32,000 nt of DNA from Microcystis aeruginosa NIES-843 (GTDB taxonomy: Bacteria; Cyanobacteriota; Cyanobacteriia; Cyanobacteriales; Microcystaceae). The stretch lies in the NCBI RefSeq assembly GCF_000010625.1, contig NC_010296.1, positions 4,500,001-4,532,000 of the forward strand, in the 5' to 3' direction. Below are positions 959-25,150 of the stretch, in pieces. Position 1 is the stretch's first letter, and each line of letters opens with the position of its first letter. Below the pieces are notes generated by a model, which saw only the letters and a list, made by a program, of their open reading frames with translations, searched no databases and was not told the DNA's origin. The translations under genes were made by a program, and so were the position numbers.

Positions 959-1900
959 TCACTGAAGCTGTATTTCCCGATAAGCTTGATAAACGCCGCG
1001 CACGTTGTACCAATTGAGAAAAATGCGGGCAATTTCTAGGGCTAATTGCGGTTTACCTCGATCGATCAACCATTGTAACAGAGGGGAGAGGCTGCGTTCA
1101 TTCAGGGTTCCCCCTAGGGAAAGTAAACCCCACAACAGTCGATGAATCCAAGTCATTTGAATCATCATCCGCACTTCCCAGGTGGGATGTTTTTGATAAA
1201 AAAGCACTCCCATTCGTCCTCGTTGAATTTCCTTATCGATGAGATTGGGAATTTGAGCGAGATTAAAGGGGGGATGCCAATGATAACCGACGGCTTCAGG
1301 ACATTTGATTAATTTTAGTCCTAATTGCTTCAATCTCACCCCTAATTCCAAATCTTCCCAACCGTAGAGTTGAAACTGGGTATCAAATAATCCCGCCGCT
1401 AATAACCATTTTTTAGCGATCGCCACGTTGCCCGTGGCAAAATAGGCGGCGGAGAAATCGGTGATTTTATAGGGTTCACTGGTGGGATGCTCGAAGTTAC
1501 AGGTATTAATGACACTGCCGTAGGTAAATAAGCGATCGCTGCTGAGACTTGCTGCCCCGGCGGTTAAAGCGTCGGCGTGGGCTTGCAAAAAATTTTCTGT
1601 CACTACCAGATCGCTATCGATAAAAATAATCGTATCACCACTAGCTTTTTCTACCCCCAGATTCCTAGCGAGCGCCGGTCCGCCGTGATCCTGTTGCCAC
1701 AGTTGCAGATGGGGTAAATTAGCCTTTTGACTTTCTAGCCAAGCGATCGTCGCATCGGTAGAGCCATCATCGACAAGGACTATTTCGTAGTTTTCCACCT
1801 TATTATCGGTTAAACGCTGATTTTCTAGGGCTAGTAAACATTTTTTTAAAATTGCTTGGCGATTGTAGGTAGGGATGACAACACTGATCAGCACGGGCAT
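959..1900 (-). CDS. Family 2 glycosyltransferase
   Basis: 313-aa ORF. The N-terminal VVIPTYNR...VLVDDGSTD...IFIDSDL pattern is typical of the GT-A fold of GT2 enzymes. Confidence 0.85.
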   Translation of the reverse strand: MPVLISVVIPTYNRQAILKKCLLALENQRLTDNKVENYEIVLVDDGSTDATIAWLESQKANLPHLQLWQQDHGGPALARNLGVEKASGDTIIFIDSDLVVTENFLQAHADALTAGAASLSSDRLFTYGSVINTCNFEHPTSEPYKITDFSAAYFATGNVAIAKKWLLAAGLFDTQFQLYGWEDLELGVRLKQLGLKLIKCPEAVGYHWHPPFNLAQIPNLIDKEIQRGRMGVLFYQKHPTWEVRMMIQMTWIHRLLWGLLSLGGTLNERSLSPLLQWLIDRGKPQLALEIARIFLNWYNVRGVYQAYREIQLQ

Positions 1901-2061: not shown

Positions 2062-2846
2062 GTTACAGTAGAGCAGGAAGTCGCCTTCCCACCCCCTGCT
2101 TCAAAACCGGACTTACGACTTTCGCCGTATCCGGCTCCTGAGTAACTAGGCTACTGTCATTAGTAGAATAATAATGGGAATTATTATTTCCTTGTCTATT
2201 CAACCCTCTTGGCTGTATCCCCACCAGACAAGATTGTTGGTTTTAGGGCGTATATGACCGTTGATTGTTGCTTAGACTTCCTAGTTACCCGTCCTTTGTC
2301 AGCATATCTTTGATATTACTCAAAGCCTTGGCTTTTAAGGACATCCTCTCCCTCTATTGACTTGCGGATGGTTTCCTACTGCCCCGAACGGGCAGAGTCA
2401 ATCAGGGTTACTTCGTTCCCTATAACCATTGGTTGAACCCTTAGGATGATACTGTCCACAACAGAGTAACGGGAATGCCTTACTGATAGTGGTATGAGCT
2501 ATCAGCCCCAACTCTGTTAACTTTTGTTTCGAGCCTGTCAGCCTTTTGGCTCGTGGGTGTTGACGATGGTTAATTCGTATCTTCGCCCCAGGGCTATCCA
2601 TAGGTTCTGGCTCAACGGGTTTCTGATTTAGGCTATCAGATACCGCTTTTTTTTCCTCGCTCACTACCTCAGATGTACCAAGTCTAAAGCAGCAGGAAAT
2701 GCCGTCACTCTAGGCATCTAGAGGACAGGACTAAGGTTATTACTAACCCGCACCTGTAGGGTTATAAAGTTATCAAGGTACTACATTTACCAAGCGGCTA
2801 ATCCTCTAAACGTCTTACTGTCTAGTTTCTAGCCAACGAATCGCAC
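2062..2846 (-). mobile_element. ORF-less group II intron (no reverse transcriptase/maturase)
   Basis: On the minus strand the 5' end reads GTGCG (2846-2842). A canonical domain V lies at 2137-2104. A domain VI-like helix follows (GGAAG-GCGA-CTTCC inside AGCA/TGCT), with an unpaired A 7 nt before a terminal ..AAC near 2062. The domain IV position is a short AT hairpin. The only ORF inside (88 aa) has no RT motifs. Confidence 0.75.
2104..2137 (-). ncRNA. Group II intron domain V (catalytic hairpin)
   Basis: Minus strand reads GAGCCGGATACGGCGAAAGTCGTAAGTCCGGTTT. It has the AGC triad paired to GUU with a G-U wobble, a 2-nt AA bulge on the 3' strand, a GAAA tetraloop, and is 34 nt long. This matches the conserved DV architecture. 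Confidence 0.85.
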
Positions 2847-3080
2847 CACACCCTACACCCTACACCCCACACCCTACACCCCACACCCTACACCCTACAC
2901 CCCACACACCACACCCTACACCCTACACCCCACACCCCACCACCCCATCTCCCCATTTCCCTATCTCCCCATTTCCCCATTTCCCCATCTCCCCACACCC
3001 CACACCCCACACCCCACACCCCACACCCCACACCCCACACCCCATAACCCACACCCCATCTCCCCATCTCCCCACACCCT
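2847..3080. repeat. C-rich strand of a (GGGGTGT/GGGTGTA/GGGGAGAT)n microsatellite-like array; a short continuation lies at 2036-2061 on the other side of the intron
   Basis: Direct reading: ccacaccctacaccctacaccccacaccc...ccccatctccccatttcccc...ccccacaccccacacc. Confidence 0.9.
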
Positions 3081-3176: not shown

Positions 3177-4628
3177 ATGGAATCGGCCATGGTAGCTTCT
3201 CTATCTTATCAAAATGGGCAAAAAGCTCGATCGCATCCCCTGTTATCCTTAGCGGGTTTAATCGAATTACCGCCATCTCCCCTGTTTGGCACGGACGGAA
3301 TTCGCGGCCAAGTGGGAGAATTATTAACTGCCCCCCTAGCGCTACAAATCGGATTTTGGGCGGGACAGGTATTAAAAAATCAGGCTGGTGTCACCAAACC
3401 GATAATTATCGGTCAAGATTCCCGTAATTCCAGTGATATGTTAGCCAATGCTATCACTGCGGGTTTAACTTGGGCGGGAATAGAAGTCTGGCAACTGGGA
3501 TTATGTCCCACTCCCTGCGTCGCCTATTTAACCAGAGAAAGCGAAGCGATGGGTGGGATCATGATTTCTGCCAGTCATAATCCTCCCGAAGATAACGGCA
3601 TTAAATTTTTTGACAGCAGCGGTTTAAAATTATCCGGCACTTTAGCCGGACAGATAGAAGCGGGTTTAAGAGGCAATTTAGAATTAGCGGATAACTCAGT
3701 AAATTGGGGAAAAGCGACTTTTTGTCCCGAATTAATCCAAAAATACTATCAAGCTGTGATTGCTTCCGTCGGGACGGATATTAACCTATCGGGATTAAAA
3801 ATAGTTTTAGATCTAGCTTGGGGGGCAGCCGTTAACCTAGCACCTTTAGTATTCCAAACCGTGGGGGCGGAAGTTATCTGCCTACACGATCGAGCCGACG
3901 GCGATCGCATTAACGTTAATTGTGGTTCTACCCATTTAGAAAGCTTACAGGCGGCGGTGATTAATCAGCAAGCGGATTTAGGGTTTGCCTTCGATGGCGA
4001 TGCCGATCGAGTCCTGGCCGTGGATAGTCAAGGTAGAGTAGTAGATGGCGATTATATCCTCTATTTTTGGGGTCGTTCCCTCTTAGAAGCCGGACAGCTA
4101 CCCGATGGGTTATTAGTAGCAACGGTGATGGCTAATTTAGGTTTTGAACGCGCTTGGCAAAAACTGGGGGGTCAATTCTTGCGGACTGCCGTGGGCGATC
4201 AGCACGTTCAGGCGCAAATGTGGGAAACTGGAGCCATGCTAGGGGGTGAACAATCTGGTCATATCCTCTGCCATCATTACGGGGTTTCTGGGGATGGAAT
4301 GCAAACCGCCCTACATTTAGCGGCTTTAGTGCAGAAATCGGCGGTTTCCTTGGCTAACTTAGTCGATCATAGCTTTGTCACCTATCCGCAGATTTTACGC
4401 AATGTGCGGGTGGAAGATAGAGAAGTGCGACGTAATTGGCAGCAATGTGAACCTTTGCGGCGAGAAATCCGCAAAGCTGAGACAGCTATGGCAGAAAAAG
4501 GCAGAATTTTGGTGCGCGCTTCCGGGACAGAACCCTTAATTCGGGTGATGGTGGAAGCAGAAACCCTAGAATTAGCCAATTTTTGGACAGAAAGGCTAGT
4601 GGCAGCGGTGCGAAGCTATCTTTTGTAG
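3177..4628 (+). CDS. glmM: Phosphoglucosamine mutase
   Basis: 483-aa [12 protein letters not shown] at the N-terminus, active-site [15 protein letters not shown], metal-binding FDGDADR, and GEQSGH sugar loop are hallmarks of the alpha-D-phosphohexomutase family as seen in GlmM. Confidence 0.9.
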
Positions 4629-4639
4629 TCGATCGAGGG

Positions 4640-4900
4640 GGACAGGGATTATAATGCCCTTAGCCTAGCGTAGCAAGGGATAATTGTCACTAACCCCGCC
4701 CTAAAAGCGACGGAGCTTGCCTAGACCAATTTAGGCGACGCAAGTAGAGACTACCGCATCGAGACACAATCTGGCACAGACCTCCGAATACTTCCCTAGT
4801 TCGGATTCCCTCTCGGCTTTATTGGTAAAGCGTTGTTAGACAAGACATCTTGATTGTGTTGCGGAAAGGGACTTTAACTTTACTCTTAAGGATTATCTCC
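4640..4900 (+). ncRNA. Candidate omega-RNA (HEARO-type) of the downstream IsrB; boundaries approximate
   Basis: Non-coding stretch directly 5' of isrB in the same orientation. Nested hairpin at 4716-4744 (CTTGCCTA...TAGGC..GCAAG). Hairpin at 4784-4804 (CCGAA...TTCGG). Perfect 8-nt long-range complement between 4764-4771 (ACACAATC) and 4852-4859 (GATTGTGT). IscB/IsrB omega-RNAs are known to lie in the 5' UTR and overlap the ORF start. Confidence 0.55.
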
Positions 4901-5998
4901 ATGGCAAGAGTTCCTGTTATCTCAAAAGACGGAAAGTCGTTGATGCCCACTAAACCCAGTCGGGCCAGACGGTGGATTAAAGAAGGAAAAGCTATCGGTA
5001 AATTCAACGACTTAGGTATTTTCTATGTCCAGCTAATCGATGAACCTTCCGATAGTAAAACCCAACCGATTGCCATTGGTATTGACCCGGGTCAATTATT
5101 CTCTGGAATTGGCGTTCAATCCTCTCTTTTTACTCTTTGGAAGGCTCACTTAGAACTTCCTTTTAAACGAGTAAAAGAGCGCATGGACAATAGACGGTTA
5201 ATGCGAAGAGGACGTAGAAAAAGACGGATTAACCGCCAACTTTCTTTTAATCTAAGAGCGCATCGACAACAACGATTCTCAAATAGAAAACAAGGAAAAT
5301 TAGCTCCCTCAATCAGAGCTAATCGTCAACTTGAACTTCGCGTCGTTTCCGAACTAACCAAAATCTATCCAATTACTGACATTTACTTTGAGTATGTCAA
5401 AGCCGATGTTGATTTAACTTCCGGTAGAAAAGGAGCTAAGTCTGGAAAAGGTTTCTCGTCGGTTATGGTCGGACAGAAATGGGCAATTGAGCAACTGTCT
5501 CAATTGGCAACAGTCCATACTCGCTTTGGTTGGCAAACCTCTAATCTCAGAAAATATTTGGGACTAGAAAAGTCCAAAAATAAAGCAGAACAATCACCAG
5601 AAAGCCATGCTAACGATGGCATTGCTCTTGCCTGTTTTCAATTTTTAGATTATTGGCCATTCCACAATTATAATGGACATGGATATGATTGGAAGGGTTC
5701 TGTTAAAGTAACAAACGCTCCCTTTGCTGTCATCAAACGTCCTCCTATTAGTCGTCGTCAACTTCACCTGATGGTTTTTTCTAAAGGTGGTAAACGACGT
5801 AAATATGGTGGCTCTACCACAAGACATGGGTTCCGTAAAGGAGATTTAGTTTCTTCTCCCAAAGGAATTGGTTATATTAGTGGAGATACCGAAAAACAGC
5901 TATCTGTAAGCGATACCAATGGTCAACGATTGGGACAGATAGCTGTTAGCAAGATTCAGTTAATTCGTCGTTCTAACGGTTTAATTGTTTCTCGCTAA
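4901..5998 (+). CDS. isrB: IsrB-type OMEGA RNA-guided nickase (IscB homologue lacking the HNH domain; 'RRXRR' protein)
   Basis: Track ORF is 4850-5998; the likely start is ATG 4901 (MARVPVISKDGKSLMPTKPSRARRWIKEGKA = PLMP-type N-terminal domain). RuvC-I is IAIGIDPG. Arg-rich bridge helix is RRLMRRGRRKRRINRQ. RuvC-II is IYFEYVK. RuvC-III is SHANDGIALA. There is no CxxC/HNH insert between RuvC-II and RuvC-III. The C-terminal GFRKGDLV..GYISG region looks SH3-like, consistent with a TAM-interaction domain. Confidence 0.85.
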   Translation: MARVPVISKDGKSLMPTKPSRARRWIKEGKAIGKFNDLGIFYVQLIDEPSDSKTQPIAIGIDPGQLFSGIGVQSSLFTLWKAHLELPFKRVKERMDNRRLMRRGRRKRRINRQLSFNLRAHRQQRFSNRKQGKLAPSIRANRQLELRVVSELTKIYPITDIYFEYVKADVDLTSGRKGAKSGKGFSSVMVGQKWAIEQLSQLATVHTRFGWQTSNLRKYLGLEKSKNKAEQSPESHANDGIALACFQFLDYWPFHNYNGHGYDWKGSVKVTNAPFAVIKRPPISRRQLHLMVFSKGGKRRKYGGSTTRHGFRKGDLVSSPKGIGYISGDTEKQLSVSDTNGQRLGQIAVSKIQLIRRSNGLIVSR

Positions 5999-6005
5999 CT
6001 TATAT

Positions 6006-6040
6006 AAAGCCGCCCTCCGTTATCGCTAAAGGGCGGGTTT
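6006..6040 (+). other. Stem-loop just after the isrB stop (candidate element right end and/or terminator)
   Basis: CCGCCCT (6010-6016) pairs with AGGGCGG (6030-6036), with AAA/TTT extensions and a 13-nt loop. A related hairpin occurs at 16120-16155. Confidence 0.6.
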
Positions 6041-6056
6041 CAGACCCATTTTTTCA

Positions 6057-7784
6057 ATGACCGGACTAAGTATCGATCGCCAGAAAAAAAAGCATAAACA
6101 GGGCCAAACAAAAGCTGATAGTCCCCCGCTTAACATCAAAGAGAAACTTGCCCTCAAAAAAGAAGAAAGGCAAAAGAAACAAAAATTAACGGGGTTAATT
6201 GTTTTTGCCATTTGTGTAGCAATTTTGCTCGGATTCCCCCTCAGCTTATTATTTGATGCCAACATAGGAGCTGCAGTAAGTTTAGCCTTAATTTTAGTAG
6301 TTTTCTCCTTTAGCTATCCTCGCATGGCTCTTTGGGCATTTATTATCTATGTCCCCTTCACTGGCACTATTATCTATTGGTTGGGAGGTAGTCCAATCCT
6401 CCAGCTTAGTAAAGATATCTTTTATCTACCCGCTTTAATCGCCTTAGTTTTAGAATGTCGAAAAAAGCAATTACCGATTATTGTCCCCAAACAATTAGGT
6501 ACAACCCTATTATTAATCTTTGTTTTCTGTGTAGTTTGTCTATTAGCCGTCAATTTACAGAGACAATTTCTGCCTACTTGTGCATCTGTAGAAGGACTGA
6601 GAGTTTTCAGCAACGGCTTTTTGTTTCGGGTTCCCTGTCGGGAAAGTGAGCCTTTTCTGCAAGGAATATTAGGATTTAAAGTTTTGCTGGGTTATGTCCC
6701 CTTGATCTTCTGCACTTATTACTTAATCAAAGACAAACCGACCCTATTATTTTTTGGTCGTCTTTTAGTGACTTTAGCGATTATTTGTTGTGTTCTAGGA
6801 CTAATGCAATACTGGATGCTGAAAACCGGTCGTTGTGTAGGAACTAGAGGCCTTGTATCTGAGGCACTATTCAAAGCCAACTTAGAGGCAAGGTGTTTGA
6901 TTGGTGGGGCGTTAGTGTATAGTCCGGAAGTAAATATGATCCGCCTACCGGGTACCTTTGTTTCTCCCTGGCACTGGGCTTGGTTTTTGGTCTCTAGTGC
7001 CGTAGTTTGTTATGCCAGTGCCTTTAGTGAAATTTCCCAAAAATGGCGACTAGCAGCCCTAGTAGGTTTAACCCTAGTTTTTATTAATGCAGTGGTCTCC
7101 GGGCAAAGATTAGCTTTCTTTGCTGTACCGATGATTATTGGTCTGATGACGATTATTACGGGACAAATCGCTAACTTAAAACGATTTTTGCCGATCATTT
7201 TTGCCTCGGCTTTACTTCTAGCTATCGGTTTTTCTTTCCTTAACCCGGATTTTGTCCAACAACGCTACGATAGTGCCATCAGCCGTTGGCAAAGCAGTCC
7301 CCCCACCGCTTTTCTTCAAGAACAGTTGGATTTTGCTATCCGTAATCAGGGCGGTATTTTAGGTCGTGGACTTGGTGTGGCCACGTCTGCTGCTAGGTTT
7401 TTCGGTGATATTTCCTTTGTGGAAACCTATCATAGTAAAGTTTTATTCGAGTTGGGATACATTGGTTTTGCCTTGTACATGATATTCATGACCCATCTAG
7501 TTTATCTGGCCTTCCGCACCTATCGTTCCCTCAAAGATCCGACTCTGCGAGGTTTTGCCGGTAGTTATTGGGTTTTGCTGCTCTTTGTTGCCTATCTTCC
7601 CTATTGGTATGCCCTCGATACAGATCCTGTGGGCGTTTATTACTGGATATTTGCGGGCGTAATTTTTAGATTACCCGTGATCGAAAAACAGGAAAAAGAA
7701 GCCAAAATTCTGGCGGGGGAAACCGCCACAAAATCCTCCAAAAAGGGCTTAAATTTTAAACGCAAAGGTGTTTCTTTAGCTTGA
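6057..7784 (+). CDS. O-antigen ligase/polymerase-like polytopic membrane protein (Wzy/WaaL-type)
   Basis: 575-aa ORF with a lysine-rich cytosolic N-terminus followed by about ten or more hydrophobic segments. It sits inside a glycosyltransferase cluster. The family call is by architecture and context only. Confidence 0.6.
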   Translation: MTGLSIDRQKKKHKQGQTKADSPPLNIKEKLALKKEERQKKQKLTGLIVFAICVAILLGFPLSLLFDANIGAAVSLALILVVFSFSYPRMALWAFIIYVPFTGTIIYWLGGSPILQLSKDIFYLPALIALVLECRKKQLPIIVPKQLGTTLLLIFVFCVVCLLAVNLQRQFLPTCASVEGLRVFSNGFLFRVPCRESEPFLQGILGFKVLLGYVPLIFCTYYLIKDKPTLLFFGRLLVTLAIICCVLGLMQYWMLKTGRCVGTRGLVSEALFKANLEARCLIGGALVYSPEVNMIRLPGTFVSPWHWAWFLVSSAVVCYASAFSEISQKWRLAALVGLTLVFINAVVSGQRLAFFAVPMIIGLMTIITGQIANLKRFLPIIFASALLLAIGFSFLNPDFVQQRYDSAISRWQSSPPTAFLQEQLDFAIRNQGGILGRGLGVATSAARFFGDISFVETYHSKVLFELGYIGFALYMIFMTHLVYLAFRTYRSLKDPTLRGFAGSYWVLLLFVAYLPYWYALDTDPVGVYYWIFAGVIFRLPVIEKQEKEAKILAGETATKSSKKGLNFKRKGVSLA

Positions 7785-7789
7785 AATAT

Positions 7790-7897
7790 GGGTGTTGGGT
7801 TTTAGGGTGTTGGGGTTTTAGGGTTTTAGTGGAAATTCCCCCATTCCCCCACTCCCCCACTCCCCCACTTCCCCACTCCCCCACTCCCCCATTCCCT
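7790..7897. repeat. Composite simple repeat: a G-rich half (GGGTGTTGGGTTTTAGGG...) followed by a C-rich half (CCCCCACT/CCCCCATT)n
   Basis: Direct reading. Its translation produces the proline-rich pseudo-N-terminus of track ORF 7781-8896. Confidence 0.9.
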
Positions 7898-7900
7898 GCT

Positions 7901-8896
7901 ATGAATTTTCCCTCGATTTCTGTGATCATACCCACCTATCGACGCGAAGAGCCTCTTAAAGATACCCTCGATGACCTACTCAAACAAGATTATCCCGATT
8001 TTGAGGTATTAGTTATCGACCAGACCGCTACCCACAGCCCCGCCATACAATCCTATCTGGAAAATCTGGCTAATCAGCACAAAATTAGCTGGTATCGGCT
8101 GGATTGGGCGAGTTTACCCGGTGCGAGAAATTATGGAGTCCGTCGCACCCAAGGCGATATCGTTCTTTTTATCGATGATGATGTGCGGCTACCGGATAAT
8201 TATCTCAAAGCACATAGTGAGAATTTTGTCAAGAACCCTGAGATAGGTGTAGTGGCAGGTCGGGTATTCGATCGCATGAAATTGGGTGACTCCCAAAAAA
8301 TGGTGACAGATACCGGCAAACCCTACGAAATCGACTTTTTACCCCCCCAAGCCATGGATCCAGGCATTGCTTGGTATTACATCGATCTTGTCCACACCAC
8401 TAAACCCCAGCAGGTAATCTCGGCCCGGGGCTGTAATATGTCTTTCCGGAAGGATATATTTACGAAATACGGCATTTGGTTCGATGAACGCTTTCGTGGC
8501 AGTGCCGTGCGCGAGGAATCGGATTTTTGCTTAAGGTTACGCCAGACTCCCTATCATGTCTGGTACGATCCCACCGCTTATCTGGTTCATTTAGGGGAAG
8601 AAACCGGCGGCTGTCATGATATTAGCACTCGTTCTTTGAGTTATCAGACGACTTTTTATCATAATCACTTTCTGATGGCCCTGAAAAATCTCACTCCCGC
8701 TCAACAATTGCGACTCTACGCTAAATTATTTGATTGTCACGTTCTTGGCAATCCTCCCTGTAATAAAGGTGGTTCCCCGATTAAAATACTCTCTAGGGGA
8801 ATTTTTTATAGTTTAGGTTTTCTTGATGCTCTGAAAACTCAAGTAAAGTCCCTCTGGAATGATGGCCAAATTTATACAAAACTAGATCATCTATGA
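7901..8896 (+). CDS. Family 2 glycosyltransferase
   Basis: MNFPSISVIIPTYRREEPL...VLVIDQ...LFIDDDV is a GT2 signature. I moved the start to ATG 7901 because residues 1-40 of the track ORF are repeat translation. Confidence 0.85.
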   Translation: MNFPSISVIIPTYRREEPLKDTLDDLLKQDYPDFEVLVIDQTATHSPAIQSYLENLANQHKISWYRLDWASLPGARNYGVRRTQGDIVLFIDDDVRLPDNYLKAHSENFVKNPEIGVVAGRVFDRMKLGDSQKMVTDTGKPYEIDFLPPQAMDPGIAWYYIDLVHTTKPQQVISARGCNMSFRKDIFTKYGIWFDERFRGSAVREESDFCLRLRQTPYHVWYDPTAYLVHLGEETGGCHDISTRSLSYQTTFYHNHFLMALKNLTPAQQLRLYAKLFDCHVLGNPPCNKGGSPIKILSRGIFYSLGFLDALKTQVKSLWNDGQIYTKLDHL

Positions 8897-10062
8897 AAAT
8901 TTTAGTCGCTAGTCATACATATATAGTTGATCTCAACTGTGAGAAACTGCGCGCCCTGACAAGATTAAATCCCAATATTGAAGTTACTATTGTTGTTCCC
9001 CAACGTTGGCAACCGGGAGGAGTCCAAAATAAAATCATTGAAAGTCAACCGAAAATAGCCGACAATTTCTGCGTCATTCCTATCTCTAATTTTAGCCAAA
9101 ATAATCAATCTTTATTAACTTTTGGCACTGATATAATTCCTTTATTGCAAAAATTTAGACCTGATATTATTCAAGTGGAACAGGGTTCTAAATCTCTCGC
9201 TTATGCTCAATTTATTACTCTGAATCGTCTCTTAAATCTACAGGCTAAAAATGTATTTTTTACCTGGTGGAATCTTCCCTATACTCCTAAATTTCCCATC
9301 TCTTGGTTAGAAGCTTATAACCTGAAAAATACCGATGGTTTAATCGCCGGTAATCAGGACGGGGTAGATGTTTTAAAAGAACGGGGTTACAGGGGTAAAT
9401 ACACCGTTTTACCGCAATTAGGAGTGGATGAAGTCCTTTTTTCCCCTGGCAAGCAACCCGATTTAGCCCGATCTTTAGGCATTGAAAACGATGAATTCGT
9501 GATTGGTTTTATCGGTCGTTTTGTGGAAGAAAAAGGCATTCTAACGCTGATTAAAGCTGCATCTAAATTAACAGGTAAGTGGAAATTATTACTGTTAGGT
9601 CGGGGCATCCTGAAAGATAAAATAGTCAGCGAAGCTAGAGCCGTAGGAATAAGCGATCGCTTGATGATAGTGGAAAGTGTTCCCCACGATCAAGTAGTTA
9701 ATTATCTTAACCTGATGAACACTTTAGTTTTGCCTTCAGAAATCACCTATCAGGTCAAAACCTTAACTGCCGTCGGTTGGAAAGAACAATTCGGTCATGT
9801 CTTAATTGAAGCTATGGCCTGTCAGGTTCCTGTTATTGGTTCTGATTCGGGAGAAATCCCCTTTGTTATTGCTGATACGGGTTTAATTTTTCCCGAAAAA
9901 GATGGGGAGGCACTGGCTAAATCTATACAAACTCTCTTAGATAATCCCAGCTTCGCTCAAGAATTAGGCCAGAGGGGTTATCAGAGAGTAATGACCAATT
10001 ATACTAATAAAGCCCTCGCTCAAAAACAATTGGATTTCTATCAACAATTACTCCCTCGGTGA
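8893..10062 (+). CDS. Family 4 (GT-B) glycosyltransferase
   Basis: 389-aa ORF. The C-terminal EQFGHVLIEAMACQVPVIGSDSGEIP matches the E-x7-E motif region of GT4/GT1 enzymes. The ATGA overlap with the upstream GT2 suggests translational coupling. Confidence 0.85.
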   Translation: MKILVASHTYIVDLNCEKLRALTRLNPNIEVTIVVPQRWQPGGVQNKIIESQPKIADNFCVIPISNFSQNNQSLLTFGTDIIPLLQKFRPDIIQVEQGSKSLAYAQFITLNRLLNLQAKNVFFTWWNLPYTPKFPISWLEAYNLKNTDGLIAGNQDGVDVLKERGYRGKYTVLPQLGVDEVLFSPGKQPDLARSLGIENDEFVIGFIGRFVEEKGILTLIKAASKLTGKWKLLLLGRGILKDKIVSEARAVGISDRLMIVESVPHDQVVNYLNLMNTLVLPSEITYQVKTLTAVGWKEQFGHVLIEAMACQVPVIGSDSGEIPFVIADTGLIFPEKDGEALAKSIQTLLDNPSFAQELGQRGYQRVMTNYTNKALAQKQLDFYQQLLPR

Positions 10063-10063
10063 T

Positions 10064-10172
10064 GGGAAGTGGGGTGTGGGGTGTGGGGTGTGGGGTGTGG
10101 GGTGTGGGGAGAAAAAAGCTGATAACTGATAACTGACAACTGATCACTGATAACTGATCACTGATCACTGGT
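10064..10172. repeat. Composite intergenic module: (GGGGTGT)n at 10064-10110, then a (CTGATAA/CTGATCA)n heptad array at 10119-10172
   Basis: Direct reading. Confidence 0.9.
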
Positions 10173-12996: not shown

Positions 12997-13046
12997 CTAG
13001 CAGTTTTGTGTCACGCTTTACCAACTTAGTCTGCGTGAACATAGCG

Positions 13047-13222
13047 GGGTGTGGGGTGTAGGGTGTAGGGTGTAGGGTGTGGGGTGTGGGGTGTAGGGTG
13101 ATGGGGAAATGGGGGTGTGGGGAGAATCAATAAAGGCAGTCTATTGACAACTGCTCACTGATTACCACTGTCCACTGAAAACTCAAATCTGATCACTGAT
13201 CACTGATAACTGATAACTGATG
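13047..13222. repeat. Composite intergenic module: (GGGGTGT/GGGTGTA)n at 13047-13123, then degenerate-to-perfect (CTGATCA/CTGATAA)n heptads at 13149-13222
   Basis: Direct reading. The order and orientation match the module at 10064-10172. Confidence 0.9.
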
Positions 13223-17804: not shown

Positions 17805-17836
17805 GGGTGTGGGGTGTGGGGTGTGGGGTGTGGGGT
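17805..17836. repeat. (GGGGTGT)n array
   Basis: Direct reading: gggtgtggggtgtggggtgtggggtgtgggg. Confidence 0.9.
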
Positions 17837-23517: not shown

Positions 23518-23838
23518 TTATCCGTCTCCTACCCACCCCGAATTTTTCCCCTTTCGTTCTTTTAATTCTACAAAAATCAAACAATTGGCATAGGTCAGCA
23601 TTCCATCACAGCGTTTATCCATACCACTACCATCGACTTTTCTAATTTCAATACATTTATCAATAGCGGTAAATGTCACTTCAATTTCTTGAGAGTTTTC
23701 CACAATAGCAATCCAATCCCTGGGATTTTCTGTATCTAAATAAGCGGGAGTTTCTGGGGGAGGTGGCCGATCACAAATTCCAAATTTATGCCGATGGGTT
23801 TGACTCTGACATTTTTTATCAAAGAAATTGATCTTCAT
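23518..23838 (-). CDS. Small PD-(D/E)xK-like putative nuclease, partner of the upstream ATPase; it ends at a TAA that is followed by 62 more in-frame sense codons (to 23329)
   Basis: 106 aa. CQSQTHRHKFGIC is a possible Zn knuckle. RCDGMLTYANCLIFVELKERK has D-x12-E-x-K spacing. ATGA overlap with the ATPase stop. The open continuation is KQLRNTIRVFIENHGIEDYSSRKAYIANNKKPTFQTSQTERMEKFRQETGFRLIIQSIIKID*. Confidence 0.6.
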   Translation of the reverse strand: MKINFFDKKCQSQTHRHKFGICDRPPPPETPAYLDTENPRDWIAIVENSQEIEVTFTAIDKCIEIRKVDGSGMDKRCDGMLTYANCLIFVELKERKGKNSGWVGDG

Positions 23839-25073
23839 AACTGTTCTTCGATTTCCAGTAAATCATCAAAAAGCTGATTTGTCTCTCCTAGGGAAAGATT
23901 GAGATAATTTTCATCAGAAGGTAAACCCTTATATGTAGCAAGTTCTCGGATTTCTCCTTGCTCTGTTAATTCATATACAATAGCATCTTCTGCCCCTATA
24001 CAAGAGGCTTTCGGGACAATTTGGTTGAGCTTTTCTTGGAGATAATCGGCGTTAGAAATCGCTGATGATAGGATTTTTTTGATAACTTTATCTGCTTTGA
24101 TAGCTAGGGTTAGATCGTTGATAATATAAGGACTATGAGTAGTTAAAATGAGTTTATTTCCTTGAGTTAAATTGACAAATTCAAATAATTTATATAAAAT
24201 CTTTTTCTGAGATTGGGGAAATAGATTCTGCTCGATTTCTTCCACAATATTTACAAAACACTCATTGCGGTATTTAGAAGATAACACTTCTAGTGCTGCC
24301 TTTTTTAGGTCATCGGAAAGATTATCATTAGAGATAATTTTCTCGATTTCCATTTTTAATCTTTTTTGCTCCTCTCCACTGAGTTCATTGCCGGAAGTTT
24401 CTTGAGTTCGATTAATCGATAAAGCAATATTTCGAGAAACGAGAAATAAAGGAACAAAAGACTGAAAACCACTGGAAGCTTCTGATAGATTTAGTTTATA
24501 ATCACTACCCACAATCTTGGCCAGTCTATTGAGTTTATCAAATTTCAATTTAACCTCACCTACTGGCAAAGTCAAACTGCCAGATAATTCCTGTTGTGAG
24601 CGATCCAATTCTTCCCAGAAAGTATATAATGATTCTGGCAGTCCTTTGAGTTTTTCTGGCCATCTTACTGCACTCAAAAAGTTTCGCTCTGCTGGTACAT
24701 ACATAATTTTTGGTACTCGATACTTTGAATTATCAGTACGCTCGATCGATAATTTAGCATTTTCAAAACTAATTCGATAAACATCTCCATTGTATTCAAT
24801 TTGGGTTTCGGGTAAAAAGTAATTGGTTAAATTTTGGTATTGACAAAAAGATTTAACAAAACGATTATATTTAGTCACATATTTTTCCTCTAAATCTCCA
24901 CGATATAGAGCTTTTTCCAACCAGCTTAATGTTGATATTAATTTAGCAATGCTACTTTTTCCAGTTCCTTGATTACCGATAAAAATCGTTACTTTCCGAA
25001 CGTCGATAAAACCATCATTTTCTAGTAAACCCGCCTTAATTGGACCGAAGTTTTTAACTTTAATTTGGCTCAT
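23835..25073 (-). CDS. ABC/SMC-like ATPase of the AAA_15/AAA_21 type
   Basis: Start moved to ATG 25073 (SD AAGGGGG; MSQIKVKNFGPIK). Walker A is GNQGTGKSS. ABC-signature-like LSEASSGFQS. Walker B-like CFVNIVEEIEQNLFP. H-loop is LILTTHSPY. The track's 24-aa N-terminal extension runs through the apcE terminator. Confidence 0.8.
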   Translation of the reverse strand: MSQIKVKNFGPIKAGLLENDGFIDVRKVTIFIGNQGTGKSSIAKLISTLSWLEKALYRGDLEEKYVTKYNRFVKSFCQYQNLTNYFLPETQIEYNGDVYRISFENAKLSIERTDNSKYRVPKIMYVPAERNFLSAVRWPEKLKGLPESLYTFWEELDRSQQELSGSLTLPVGEVKLKFDKLNRLAKIVGSDYKLNLSEASSGFQSFVPLFLVSRNIALSINRTQETSGNELSGEEQKRLKMEIEKIISNDNLSDDLKKAALEVLSSKYRNECFVNIVEEIEQNLFPQSQKKILYKLFEFVNLTQGNKLILTTHSPYIINDLTLAIKADKVIKKILSSAISNADYLQEKLNQIVPKASCIGAEDAIVYELTEQGEIRELATYKGLPSDENYLNLSLGETNQLFDDLLEIEEQL

Positions 25074-25123
25074 TGTTACCCCCTTGATTGACGATGATAA
25101 ATTTTGGCCAGTAATTTGTCCTG

Positions 25124-25150
25124 AAAAAAAGCTCGTGTTGAACACGAGCT
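25124..25150 (-). terminator. Intrinsic terminator of apcE
   Basis: Minus strand shows a perfect 9-bp stem, AGCTCGTGT / ACACGAGCT, with a 3-nt loop, followed by TTTTTTT. It lies 25 nt after the apcE stop. Confidence 0.85.

Follow-up and report, generated by a model that had tools for sequence, protein, structure and literature searches.

An insertion sequence of the ISC1-1_MA family with predicted IsrB and omegaRNA genes between glmM and hpsL of Microcystis aeruginosa NIES-843

A stretch of 32,000 nucleotides (nt) from the genome of Microcystis aeruginosa NIES-843 (NC_010296.1, positions 4,500,001 to 4,532,000, forward strand; in the following called the window, with positions counted from its first base) harbors an open reading frame (ORF) located between glmM and hpsL. 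In a first-pass annotation, made from the sequence alone, this ORF had been assigned to IsrB, the HNH-less relative of IscB, and regarded as a solo gene inserted upstream of an exopolysaccharide (EPS) operon. Its position and length were found as given there, but the mobile element is larger than the ORF and includes a predicted omegaRNA gene. The omegaRNA, the exact element ends, the ATGA target and the prior publication of the element family had been overlooked. The features of the element and its immediate flanks are the following, a slash denoting the insertion point.

4666-4685 (+): predicted guide of 20 nt, TAGCGTAGCAAGGGATAATT, in the host flank directly 5' of the scaffold
4686-6056 (+): whole non-autonomous ISC1 (IsrB) element, 1371 bp, 5'-GTCAC...TTTTTCA-3'
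4686-4900 (+): predicted omegaRNA scaffold of the HEARO type, placed by Rfam HEARO alignment and covariation
4694-4715: left-end subterminal hairpin, equivalent to stem-loop 1 (SL1) of the omegaRNA; TnpA-defined right end, presumed to be bound by TnpA
4901-5998 (+): isrB, start codon ATG at 4901, stop codon TAA at 5996-5998, 365 amino acids
6006-6047: right-end subterminal hairpin(s), GCCGCCCT...AGGGCGGG, followed by GGGTTTCAGACCC and a T-run; TnpA-defined left end, positioned 3' of the stop codon of isrB
6057-6060 (+): ATGA, host DNA; insertion target N/ATGA, predicted target-adjacent motif (TAM; NTGA), and hpsL start codon (very likely) with the next base

The isrB gene and its predicted product

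An alternative in-frame start codon, TTG at 4850, is located inside the omegaRNA gene. Since this RNA is conserved and all homologs begin with M-x-R-V-P-V at the position of the ATG at 4901, the latter was taken as the start of isrB. The motifs IGIDPG (containing D62), RRLMRRGRRKRRINRQ, FEYVK (E164) and SHANDGIALA (H236, D239) named in the first-pass annotation are present in the protein, but the N-terminal motif, given there as PLMP, reads SLMP (residues 13-16) in the window copy; the proline at position 13 shows at least 90% conservation within the family.

Database comparisons pointed consistently to IsrB. The Pfam domain RRXRR was matched by residues 4-181 (E=4.7e-52), and in a phmmer search of PDB sequences the sole full-length match was 8DMB, IsrB from Desulfovirgula thermocuniculi (DtIsrB; E=2e-45, residues 2-361), which the family profile also matched over its full length (E=1.1e-57). 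Pairwise alignment to DtIsrB residues 6-341 showed 35% identity (E=5e-54); the DtIsrB numbering used was checked against Pro17 and Pro20 of PMC9581776. In this alignment, D62 corresponds to D65 of DtIsrB (RuvC-I), E164 to the RuvC-II glutamate, and H236 and D239 to H226 and D229 (RuvC-III). R343 and Q346 are found at the positions of R323 and Q326, the residues of DtIsrB by which G3 and A4 of its NTGA TAM are read (PMC9581776). D62, E164 and D239 do not vary among 45 diverse sequences (31-94% identity to the query), and H236 and R343 are at least 90% conserved. The RuvC catalytic residues are intact, as had been claimed. Domain limits were transferred from DtIsrB (PMC9581776) by alignment.

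Residues ~1-56: PLMP domain, with SLMP at 13-16; residues 2-56 align
Residues ~88-110: bridge helix; helix at 88-109 in the structure model
Residues ~165-190: short HNH-like linker
Residues ~281-313: phosphate-lock/WED region
Residues ~314-365: TAM-interacting (TI) domain, with R343 and Q346

Structure prediction gave the same picture. An AlphaFold2 (AF2) model built with 20 close homologs reached a predicted local distance difference test score (pLDDT) of only 52 and was discarded; the alignment of 45 diverse sequences used instead yielded a pLDDT of 90.1 and a predicted template-modelling score (pTM) of 0.86. In this model, the PLMP region consists of four strands and one helix, and the TAM-interacting region forms a confident beta-rich domain that superposes on 8DMB. 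When the model was compared with PDB structures by Foldseek, chain 8dmb_P was the top match (E=1.2e-30; template-modelling (TM) scores 0.79/0.88; root-mean-square deviation 3.5 A), followed by IscB complexes (TM 0.53-0.69 by query length) and then by RuvC resolvases and Cas9s.

The absence both of an HNH domain and of CxxC pairs, which had been noted earlier, was borne out. In profile searches, the alignment to IscB structures breaks off at RuvC-II, near position 165, the site of the HNH insert of IscB. The NCBIfam model guided_IscB (NF040563) scored 113 bits against a cut-off of 175 and was covered only from position 3 to 161 out of 314. No Pfam HNH family was matched by residues 161-365 even at E<=10, and the spacer of 71 amino acids between E164 and H236 contains no cysteine and is colinear with DtIsrB. 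Thus, the profile search and structure superposition proposed in the first-pass annotation revealed a split RuvC with aligned D/E/H/D residues and no cryptic HNH. These comparisons of sequence and modelled structure confirmed the predicted product of 4901-5998 as an intact IsrB, a Cas9-related RNA-guided DNA nickase of small size that lacks HNH. Because the HNH insert is missing, only nicking is expected, in contrast to IscB, which cuts both strands.

The closest homologs are found in Microcystis, with up to 95-96% protein identity. Among 1.84 billion representative proteins, 1,489 related clusters were detected at E<=1e-3 and 99 at E<=1e-30. Public annotation is restricted to 'RRXRR domain-containing protein', and entries so labelled in bloom-forming cyanobacteria would represent IsrB nickases.

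The omegaRNA gene, element limits and empty sites

The designation 'solo' applies to the gene only with respect to tnpA, since its cognate omegaRNA gene is predicted directly upstream. At the gathering threshold, Rfam reported nothing in this region. A sensitive scan detected HEARO (RF02033) at 4686-4878 on the plus strand, spanning model positions 1-211 with 31.1 bits (E=4e-4 for a search space of 2 kb, 0.0067 for the whole window), and the first base of this alignment is the first base of the element, 4686. From 63 related loci taken from reference genomes, 37 non-redundant upstream regions were aligned. RNAalifold predicted 44 pairs, with compensatory double changes in 40 of them. On this structure 92.4% of the cells are paired, compared to 67.0% in column shuffles and 30-47% when partners were slid by 1-3 columns (covariation score 0.68 versus 0.22). 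The following helices and pseudoknots were assigned.

4686-4691/4746-4751: outer stem
4694-4698/4711-4715: SL1
4720-4724/4731-4735: SL2
4754-4774/4849-4864: long stem
4783-4788/4800-4805: hairpin
4816-4820/4827-4831: hairpin
4890-4892/4898-4900: Shine-Dalgarno (SD) hairpin
4725-4730 (ACCAAT) with 4821-4826 (ATTGGT): pseudoknot, spotted by eye, covarying
4793-4797 (UCCCU) with 4867-4871 (AGGGA): pseudoknot, spotted by eye, covarying

The two pseudoknots are paired in 88.9% of the cases, versus 70.0% in shuffles. Both are pseudoknots already described for the RNAs of the cyanobacterial CwIsrB and DsIsrB (Hirano 2022, PMC9581776). The last hairpin (4890-4900) contains the ribosome-binding-site sequence GGA just 5' of the ATG, as in DtIsrB, and in the window copy all helices besides SL1 are intact. 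Judged by covariation, the upstream RNA behaves as a HEARO/omegaRNA, yet it is too divergent for the Rfam model. The published layout of IsrB omegaRNAs has a 20-nt guide 5' of the scaffold (PMC9581776), and by analogy the guide would be specified by the host flank at 4666-4685.

The limits of the element were defined by comparison with other copies. Homology among copies at unrelated Microcystis loci extends from 4686 (GTCAC...) to 6060 (...TTTTTCGATGA), with unrelated DNA beyond. Copies from eight other Microcystis genomes or metagenome-assembled genomes share 93-96% nucleotide identity with the window copy; the family criterion of PMC4810608 is more than 75% identity to the consensus, for which the other Microcystis copies were used here instead. 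Two of the copies (loci L007 and L008) also share the flanks of the window copy and are therefore the same insertion in other strains.

Empty sites were searched to locate the junction. A pattern consisting of both flanks, GTAGCAAGGGATAATT...CMGGACTAAGTAT, matched nothing owing to a G/C polymorphism in the flank, and a pattern of the right flank only was used; a look-up with the exact glmM sequence returned one short contig carrying the insertion. With the right flank, a metagenome scan revealed 12 Microcystis contigs of the locus, four occupied and eight empty. The eight empty sites read ...GGGATAATT/ATGACCGG..., that is ...GCAAGGGATAATT/ATGA/CCGGACTAAG, with ...gggataatt/ATGA/CCGGAC around the junction. 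Therefore, the right boundary is 6056, the target site is not duplicated, and ATGA at 6057-6060 is host DNA. These data show that occupied and empty alleles of this polymorphic site occur in natural Microcystis populations. In the wider family, ATGA follows nearly every copy. All eight empty alleles contain the guide 20-mer with one to three mismatches followed directly by ATGA, whereas at the occupied site GTCA, not a TAM, comes after the guide match.

At its right end, the element carries a hairpin with a predicted DNA folding energy of -10 to -11.7 kcal/mol (z -2.3 to -3.6), including a terminator-like hairpin at 6035-6047; a hairpin and a T-run before ATGA are kept across the family. The termini of the window copy comprise the 5' GTCA and the right-end hairpin, with CA instead of CG at the 3' end and a destabilised left hairpin. 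Only one copy of the element is present in the window. As the first-pass annotation had stated for tnpA, no Y1 transposase domain was detected in any window ORF of at least 110 amino acids. TnpA probes gave no match in the flanks of 77 loci either, which is only a weak negative. The element is of the non-autonomous IS200/IS605-superfamily type and carries only the omegaRNA gene and isrB.

The genes on both sides agree with the insertion between glmM and an EPS operon proposed initially.

3177-4628 (+): glmM, phosphoglucosamine mutase, upstream of the element and co-oriented; TIGR01455 with 588 bits (cut-off 447), Pfam PGM_PMM I-IV
6057-7784 (+): hpsL, hormogonium polysaccharide biosynthesis protein; NCBIfam EPS_HpsL with 785.6 bits (cut-off 640)
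7781-8896: hpsN; NCBIfam HpsN with 616.8 bits, above the cut-off
8893-10062: hpsO; NCBIfam HpsO with 702.9 bits, above the cut-off

Alignment to the HpsL model begins at residue 9 of the ORF that has its first base at 6057, and in the empty site an in-frame stop codon is located four codons 5' of the junction ATG. Translation of hpsL therefore very likely starts at the ATG within the target ATGA.

Maintenance, decay and start-codon placement

Taken as a whole, the locus is very probably explained by a copy of the Microcystis insertion sequence ISC1-1_MA, which would depend on IsrB and its omegaRNA for homing or retention. The individual steps follow published work (Altae-Tran 2021; Hirano 2022; Meers 2023). 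Transcription from within the host flank would yield an RNA with about 20 nt of the flank (4666-4685) as guide and then the scaffold, and this RNA would be bound by IsrB. A Y1 transposase (TnpA) encoded elsewhere would excise the element seamlessly and leave a vacant site in which the guide match is joined to ATGA. The IsrB-omegaRNA complex would recognise ATGA via R343 and Q346 and nick the non-target strand, and repair from the sister copy would then restore the element. The occupied site would be protected, because there the guide match is followed by GTCA. In the retention model of Meers et al. (2023), the donor joint that results from excision by TnpA is cut by the nuclease; the omegaRNA is on the side of the TnpA-defined right end and the TAM abuts the left end. 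According to the same study, tnpA is found near only about 1.5% of iscB/isrB genes, and iscB/isrB elements tend to have the same orientation as the gene upstream. The geometry in the window fits this model, with guide match and ATGA at the vacant site and glmM upstream on the same strand.

Several observations weigh against a fully functional system. In the PLMP motif, the window copy has a P13S exchange, while contigs L068 and L071 retain PLMP in the same insertion. The left-end hairpin harbors two destabilising changes, including a C4695/A4714 mismatch, and its folding energy as DNA is -4.0 kcal/mol compared to -9.5 in the consensus-like loci L015 and L008. The 3' terminus is CA where the family has CG, and N265 of the DtIsrB phosphate lock aligns with V292. 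At the same locus, strain T1-4 (L007) shows an in-frame deletion of 28 amino acids in the repetitive Arg-rich helix region (~5254-5285), and strain BLCC-F210 (L008) an insertion of ~120 bp in the TI-domain region (~5965-6088), which truncates the protein. With 31.1 bits, the HEARO match is below the gathering score of 83, and a promoter scan upstream of the guide revealed no convincing promoter on the plus strand. A consensus scan scored the palindromic TATAAT at 4651-4656 as a -10 box on the minus strand only. It is part of the palindrome ATTATAAT (4648-4657), which lies in the glmM-hpsL spacer 29-34 nt 5' of the insertion point and occurs in empty alleles as well. This sequence could be the -10 element of the hpsL promoter and so drive the guide.

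These changes raise the possibility of a stranded, decaying relic: a true ISC1-1_MA copy that is immobile, may lack a working nickase, and persists since nothing excises it. Besides the exchange in a highly conserved motif, the loss of more than half of the left-hairpin stability and the altered terminus, it is supported by the missing tnpA in 32 kb and by the damage seen in orthologous and other Microcystis copies, among which D62N, P63Q or stop codons occur. The ratio of nonsynonymous to synonymous substitution rates (Ka/Ks), ~0.1 to distant copies, is also higher within Microcystis (0.15-0.32). Against this, the ORF is full-length, all catalytic and TAM-reading residues are intact, and the omegaRNA helices are preserved apart from SL1, which in DtIsrB is dispensable for nicking and for which a role in mobility has been proposed (PMC9581776). 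The population polymorphism of the site, moreover, argues for fairly recent mobility or excision. A relic is considered less probable than not. From the substitution ratios and the damaged copies it was concluded that purifying selection acts on the IsrB family and that single Microcystis copies undergo decay. By its sequence, the window copy is probably nuclease-competent, and it may be impaired for mobility.

Further Microcystis copies are inactivated in other ways than L007 and L008. Locus L004 contains an insertion of ~100 bp inside the omegaRNA (~4836-4935), and in L022 and L032 a segment of 157 bp is replaced by 271 bp of unrelated DNA (5727-5997). Since L032 (M. aeruginosa M131) combines the left flank of L004 with the right flank of L022, both from Microcystis sp. 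M015S2, recombination between two IsrB element copies is suggested, by which the chromosome was rearranged in one lineage.

The insertion at the hpsL start codon is not an isolated case. Empty sites were rebuilt for 32 insertions among loci L001-L062; a co-oriented ORF of at least 100 codons has its first ATG at the junction in 18 of these. The expectation is 5.0% if all ATGA sites in the same loci are considered (p=1e-15) and 16.0% for ATGA sites that do not disrupt a gene (p=2e-7). Gene calls made by third parties were used to judge six further independent insertions (L078-L087). Four of these (L078, L079, L082, L083) have a co-oriented gene whose start coincides with the junction ATGA; for the remaining two, the next co-oriented gene call begins ~60 nt (L080/L081) or ~370 nt (L086/L087) downstream of the junction. 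Tentatively, IsrB elements of this cyanobacterial clade might be found or retained preferentially at the exact position where a co-oriented host gene has its ATG start codon. Such a bias is plausible because ATGA represents a start codon with a common A in the fourth position and because the guide is outside the element. A guide in this location would have to be transcribed from a host promoter or 5' untranslated region (UTR), and only copies in a transcribed leader would produce a guide and escape loss. Target availability or a preference of TnpA are alternative explanations of the bias. No mention of it was found in the searchable literature, which does not include the 2009 HEARO paper, so that an earlier report is possible. 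If true, start-codon placement would link guide biogenesis to the choice of the insertion site and position the elements to alter expression of the abutting gene, here hpsL-hpsN-hpsO. Confirmation across whole genomes would make it relevant to the question of how guides outside a transposon are transcribed, and it is the sole part of the present analysis that could teach something new.

Alternatively, the element could act as a host-relevant regulatory insertion between the hpsL promoter or 5' UTR and the start codon, altering hpsL-hpsN-hpsO and being kept or lost accordingly. The exact position at the hpsL ATG, the hairpin and T-run just 5' of it, the coexistence of occupied and empty alleles in nature and the frequent location of elements of this clade on start codons would be in line with such a role. 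The nuclease residues are intact, however, unlike those of known nuclease-dead domesticated relatives, and the needs of the element itself, an ATGA target and a transcribed flank, can explain the start-codon bias without any benefit to the host; this role is considered improbable. The occupied and empty alleles differ right at the first codon of an operon for polysaccharides, and this polymorphism might matter for colony or mucilage phenotypes. A protein other than IsrB, whether a cryptic-HNH IscB or a RuvC/RRXRR nuclease of the ordinary kind that works without a guide RNA, could be invoked because the only NCBIfam match is an IscB model and public records mention just an RRXRR domain, but it is extremely improbable: cryptic-HNH IscB and plain RuvC resolvase were rejected by the profile alignment, in which the IscB model and all IscB structures end at RuvC-II and so cover the N-terminal half only, by the HNH search and by the Foldseek ranking, where IsrB and not IscB or RuvC is the best match, and a covarying omegaRNA adjoins the gene.

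Other features were noted in the window. A match to group II intron domain V/VI above the Rfam gathering score (2062-2139, minus strand; 55 bits, E=2e-8) is located between a GT2 glycosyltransferase gene (959-1900, minus strand) and a heptamer repeat array, with no obvious reverse-transcriptase ORF nearby. Tandem-repeat arrays with a period of 7-8 nt are present at 2846-3079, 7837-7896, 10058-10170, 13046-13221 and 17805-17836; units such as CCACACC (x32), GTGGGGT and CTGATAA resemble cyanobacterial STRR repeats. Several of the arrays are intergenic, and one is in the 5' part of the hpsN ORF. Between adhE and apcE, an ORF of 436 amino acids (23835-25145, minus strand) with AAA_15/AAA_21 ATPase domains and an AbiEii/OLD-like signature may be defence-related.

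Comparison with known systems

For IsrB orthologs, cyanobacterial ones among them, RNA-guided and TAM-dependent nicking of the non-target strand has been shown (PMC9581776). The DtIsrB-omegaRNA complex (8DMB; Hirano 2022) resembles the window system in domain order, fold, catalytic residues and the TAM-reading R and Q; its NTGA TAM matches ATGA, the guide is 5' of the scaffold, and an SD sequence is inside the terminal hairpin. Apart from the identity of only 35%, the window protein differs by ~17 extra residues after RuvC-III (246-272, a beta-hairpin), by a longer RECL and by V292 in place of the phosphate-lock Asn. The scaffold comprises ~215 nt compared to 262 nt for DtIsrB.

Closer relatives are the cyanobacterial orthologs CwIsrB (Crocosphaera watsonii) and DsIsrB (Dolichospermum), which were tested in vitro and have an NTG TAM (Hirano 2022, PMC9581776). 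Their omegaRNAs contain a pseudoknot between SL2 and SL5 and a second one between SL4 and the 3' single strand, and both covary in the family of the window element. Homologs in C. watsonii WH 8501 are 68-71% identical to the window protein. IscB, the sister group with an HNH domain (for example OgeuIscB, 7XHT/7UTN), shares PLMP, RuvC-I, the bridge helix, RuvC-II, a HEARO-type omegaRNA and the IS200/IS605 context, but has an HNH insert after RuvC-II, which is missing in the window protein.

The element itself corresponds to ISC1-1_MA, described by Kapitonov, Makarova & Koonin (2016, PMC4810608) with four copies in M. aeruginosa NIES-843 and the termini 5'-GTCA...CGATGA-3'. In its empty loci, GT was recognised as the transposon end and ATGA as the target (N/ATGA), without duplication (PMC4810608). 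In later work, the HNH-less IscB1 proteins of that study received the name IsrB and proved to be nickases guided by omegaRNA. The window element and ISC1-1_MA come from the same genus and have a single HNH-less IscB1 (IsrB) gene, a 5'-GTCA start, an N/ATGA target verified by empty loci without duplication, no transposase gene and a low copy number, one copy being contained in the window. Differences are the end CA/ATGA instead of CG/ATGA, SLMP for PLMP, and the weakened left hairpin. Termini and target, derived here independently, agree with those of ISC1-1_MA.

ISC1-1_MA shares its 3' terminus and target with IS605B-1_MA, a TnpB element with 46 copies in NIES-843 (PMC4810608), the shared terminus being the Y1-binding one. 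For this reason, both are presumably mobilised by the same TnpA. IS605B-1_MA differs in that TnpB is encoded on the opposite strand and the guide is at the other element end, and none was seen in the window. In C. watsonii WH 8501 (locus L014), a second right-terminus-like sequence without an attached IsrB gene (hairpin and TTTTTCG/ATGA, ~8581 on the minus strand) was observed ~2.5 kb from the IsrB copy and on the opposite strand; it may belong to a TnpB element or a palindrome-associated transposable element (PATE) sharing the terminus.

The window element is thus real but already known, as ISC1-1_MA, the ATGA target, the protein class and the mechanism have all been published, and as a discovery it adds little. 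Its value is that of a fully delimited natural example of IsrB, omegaRNA, guide and TAM, together with matching empty alleles from wild Microcystis.

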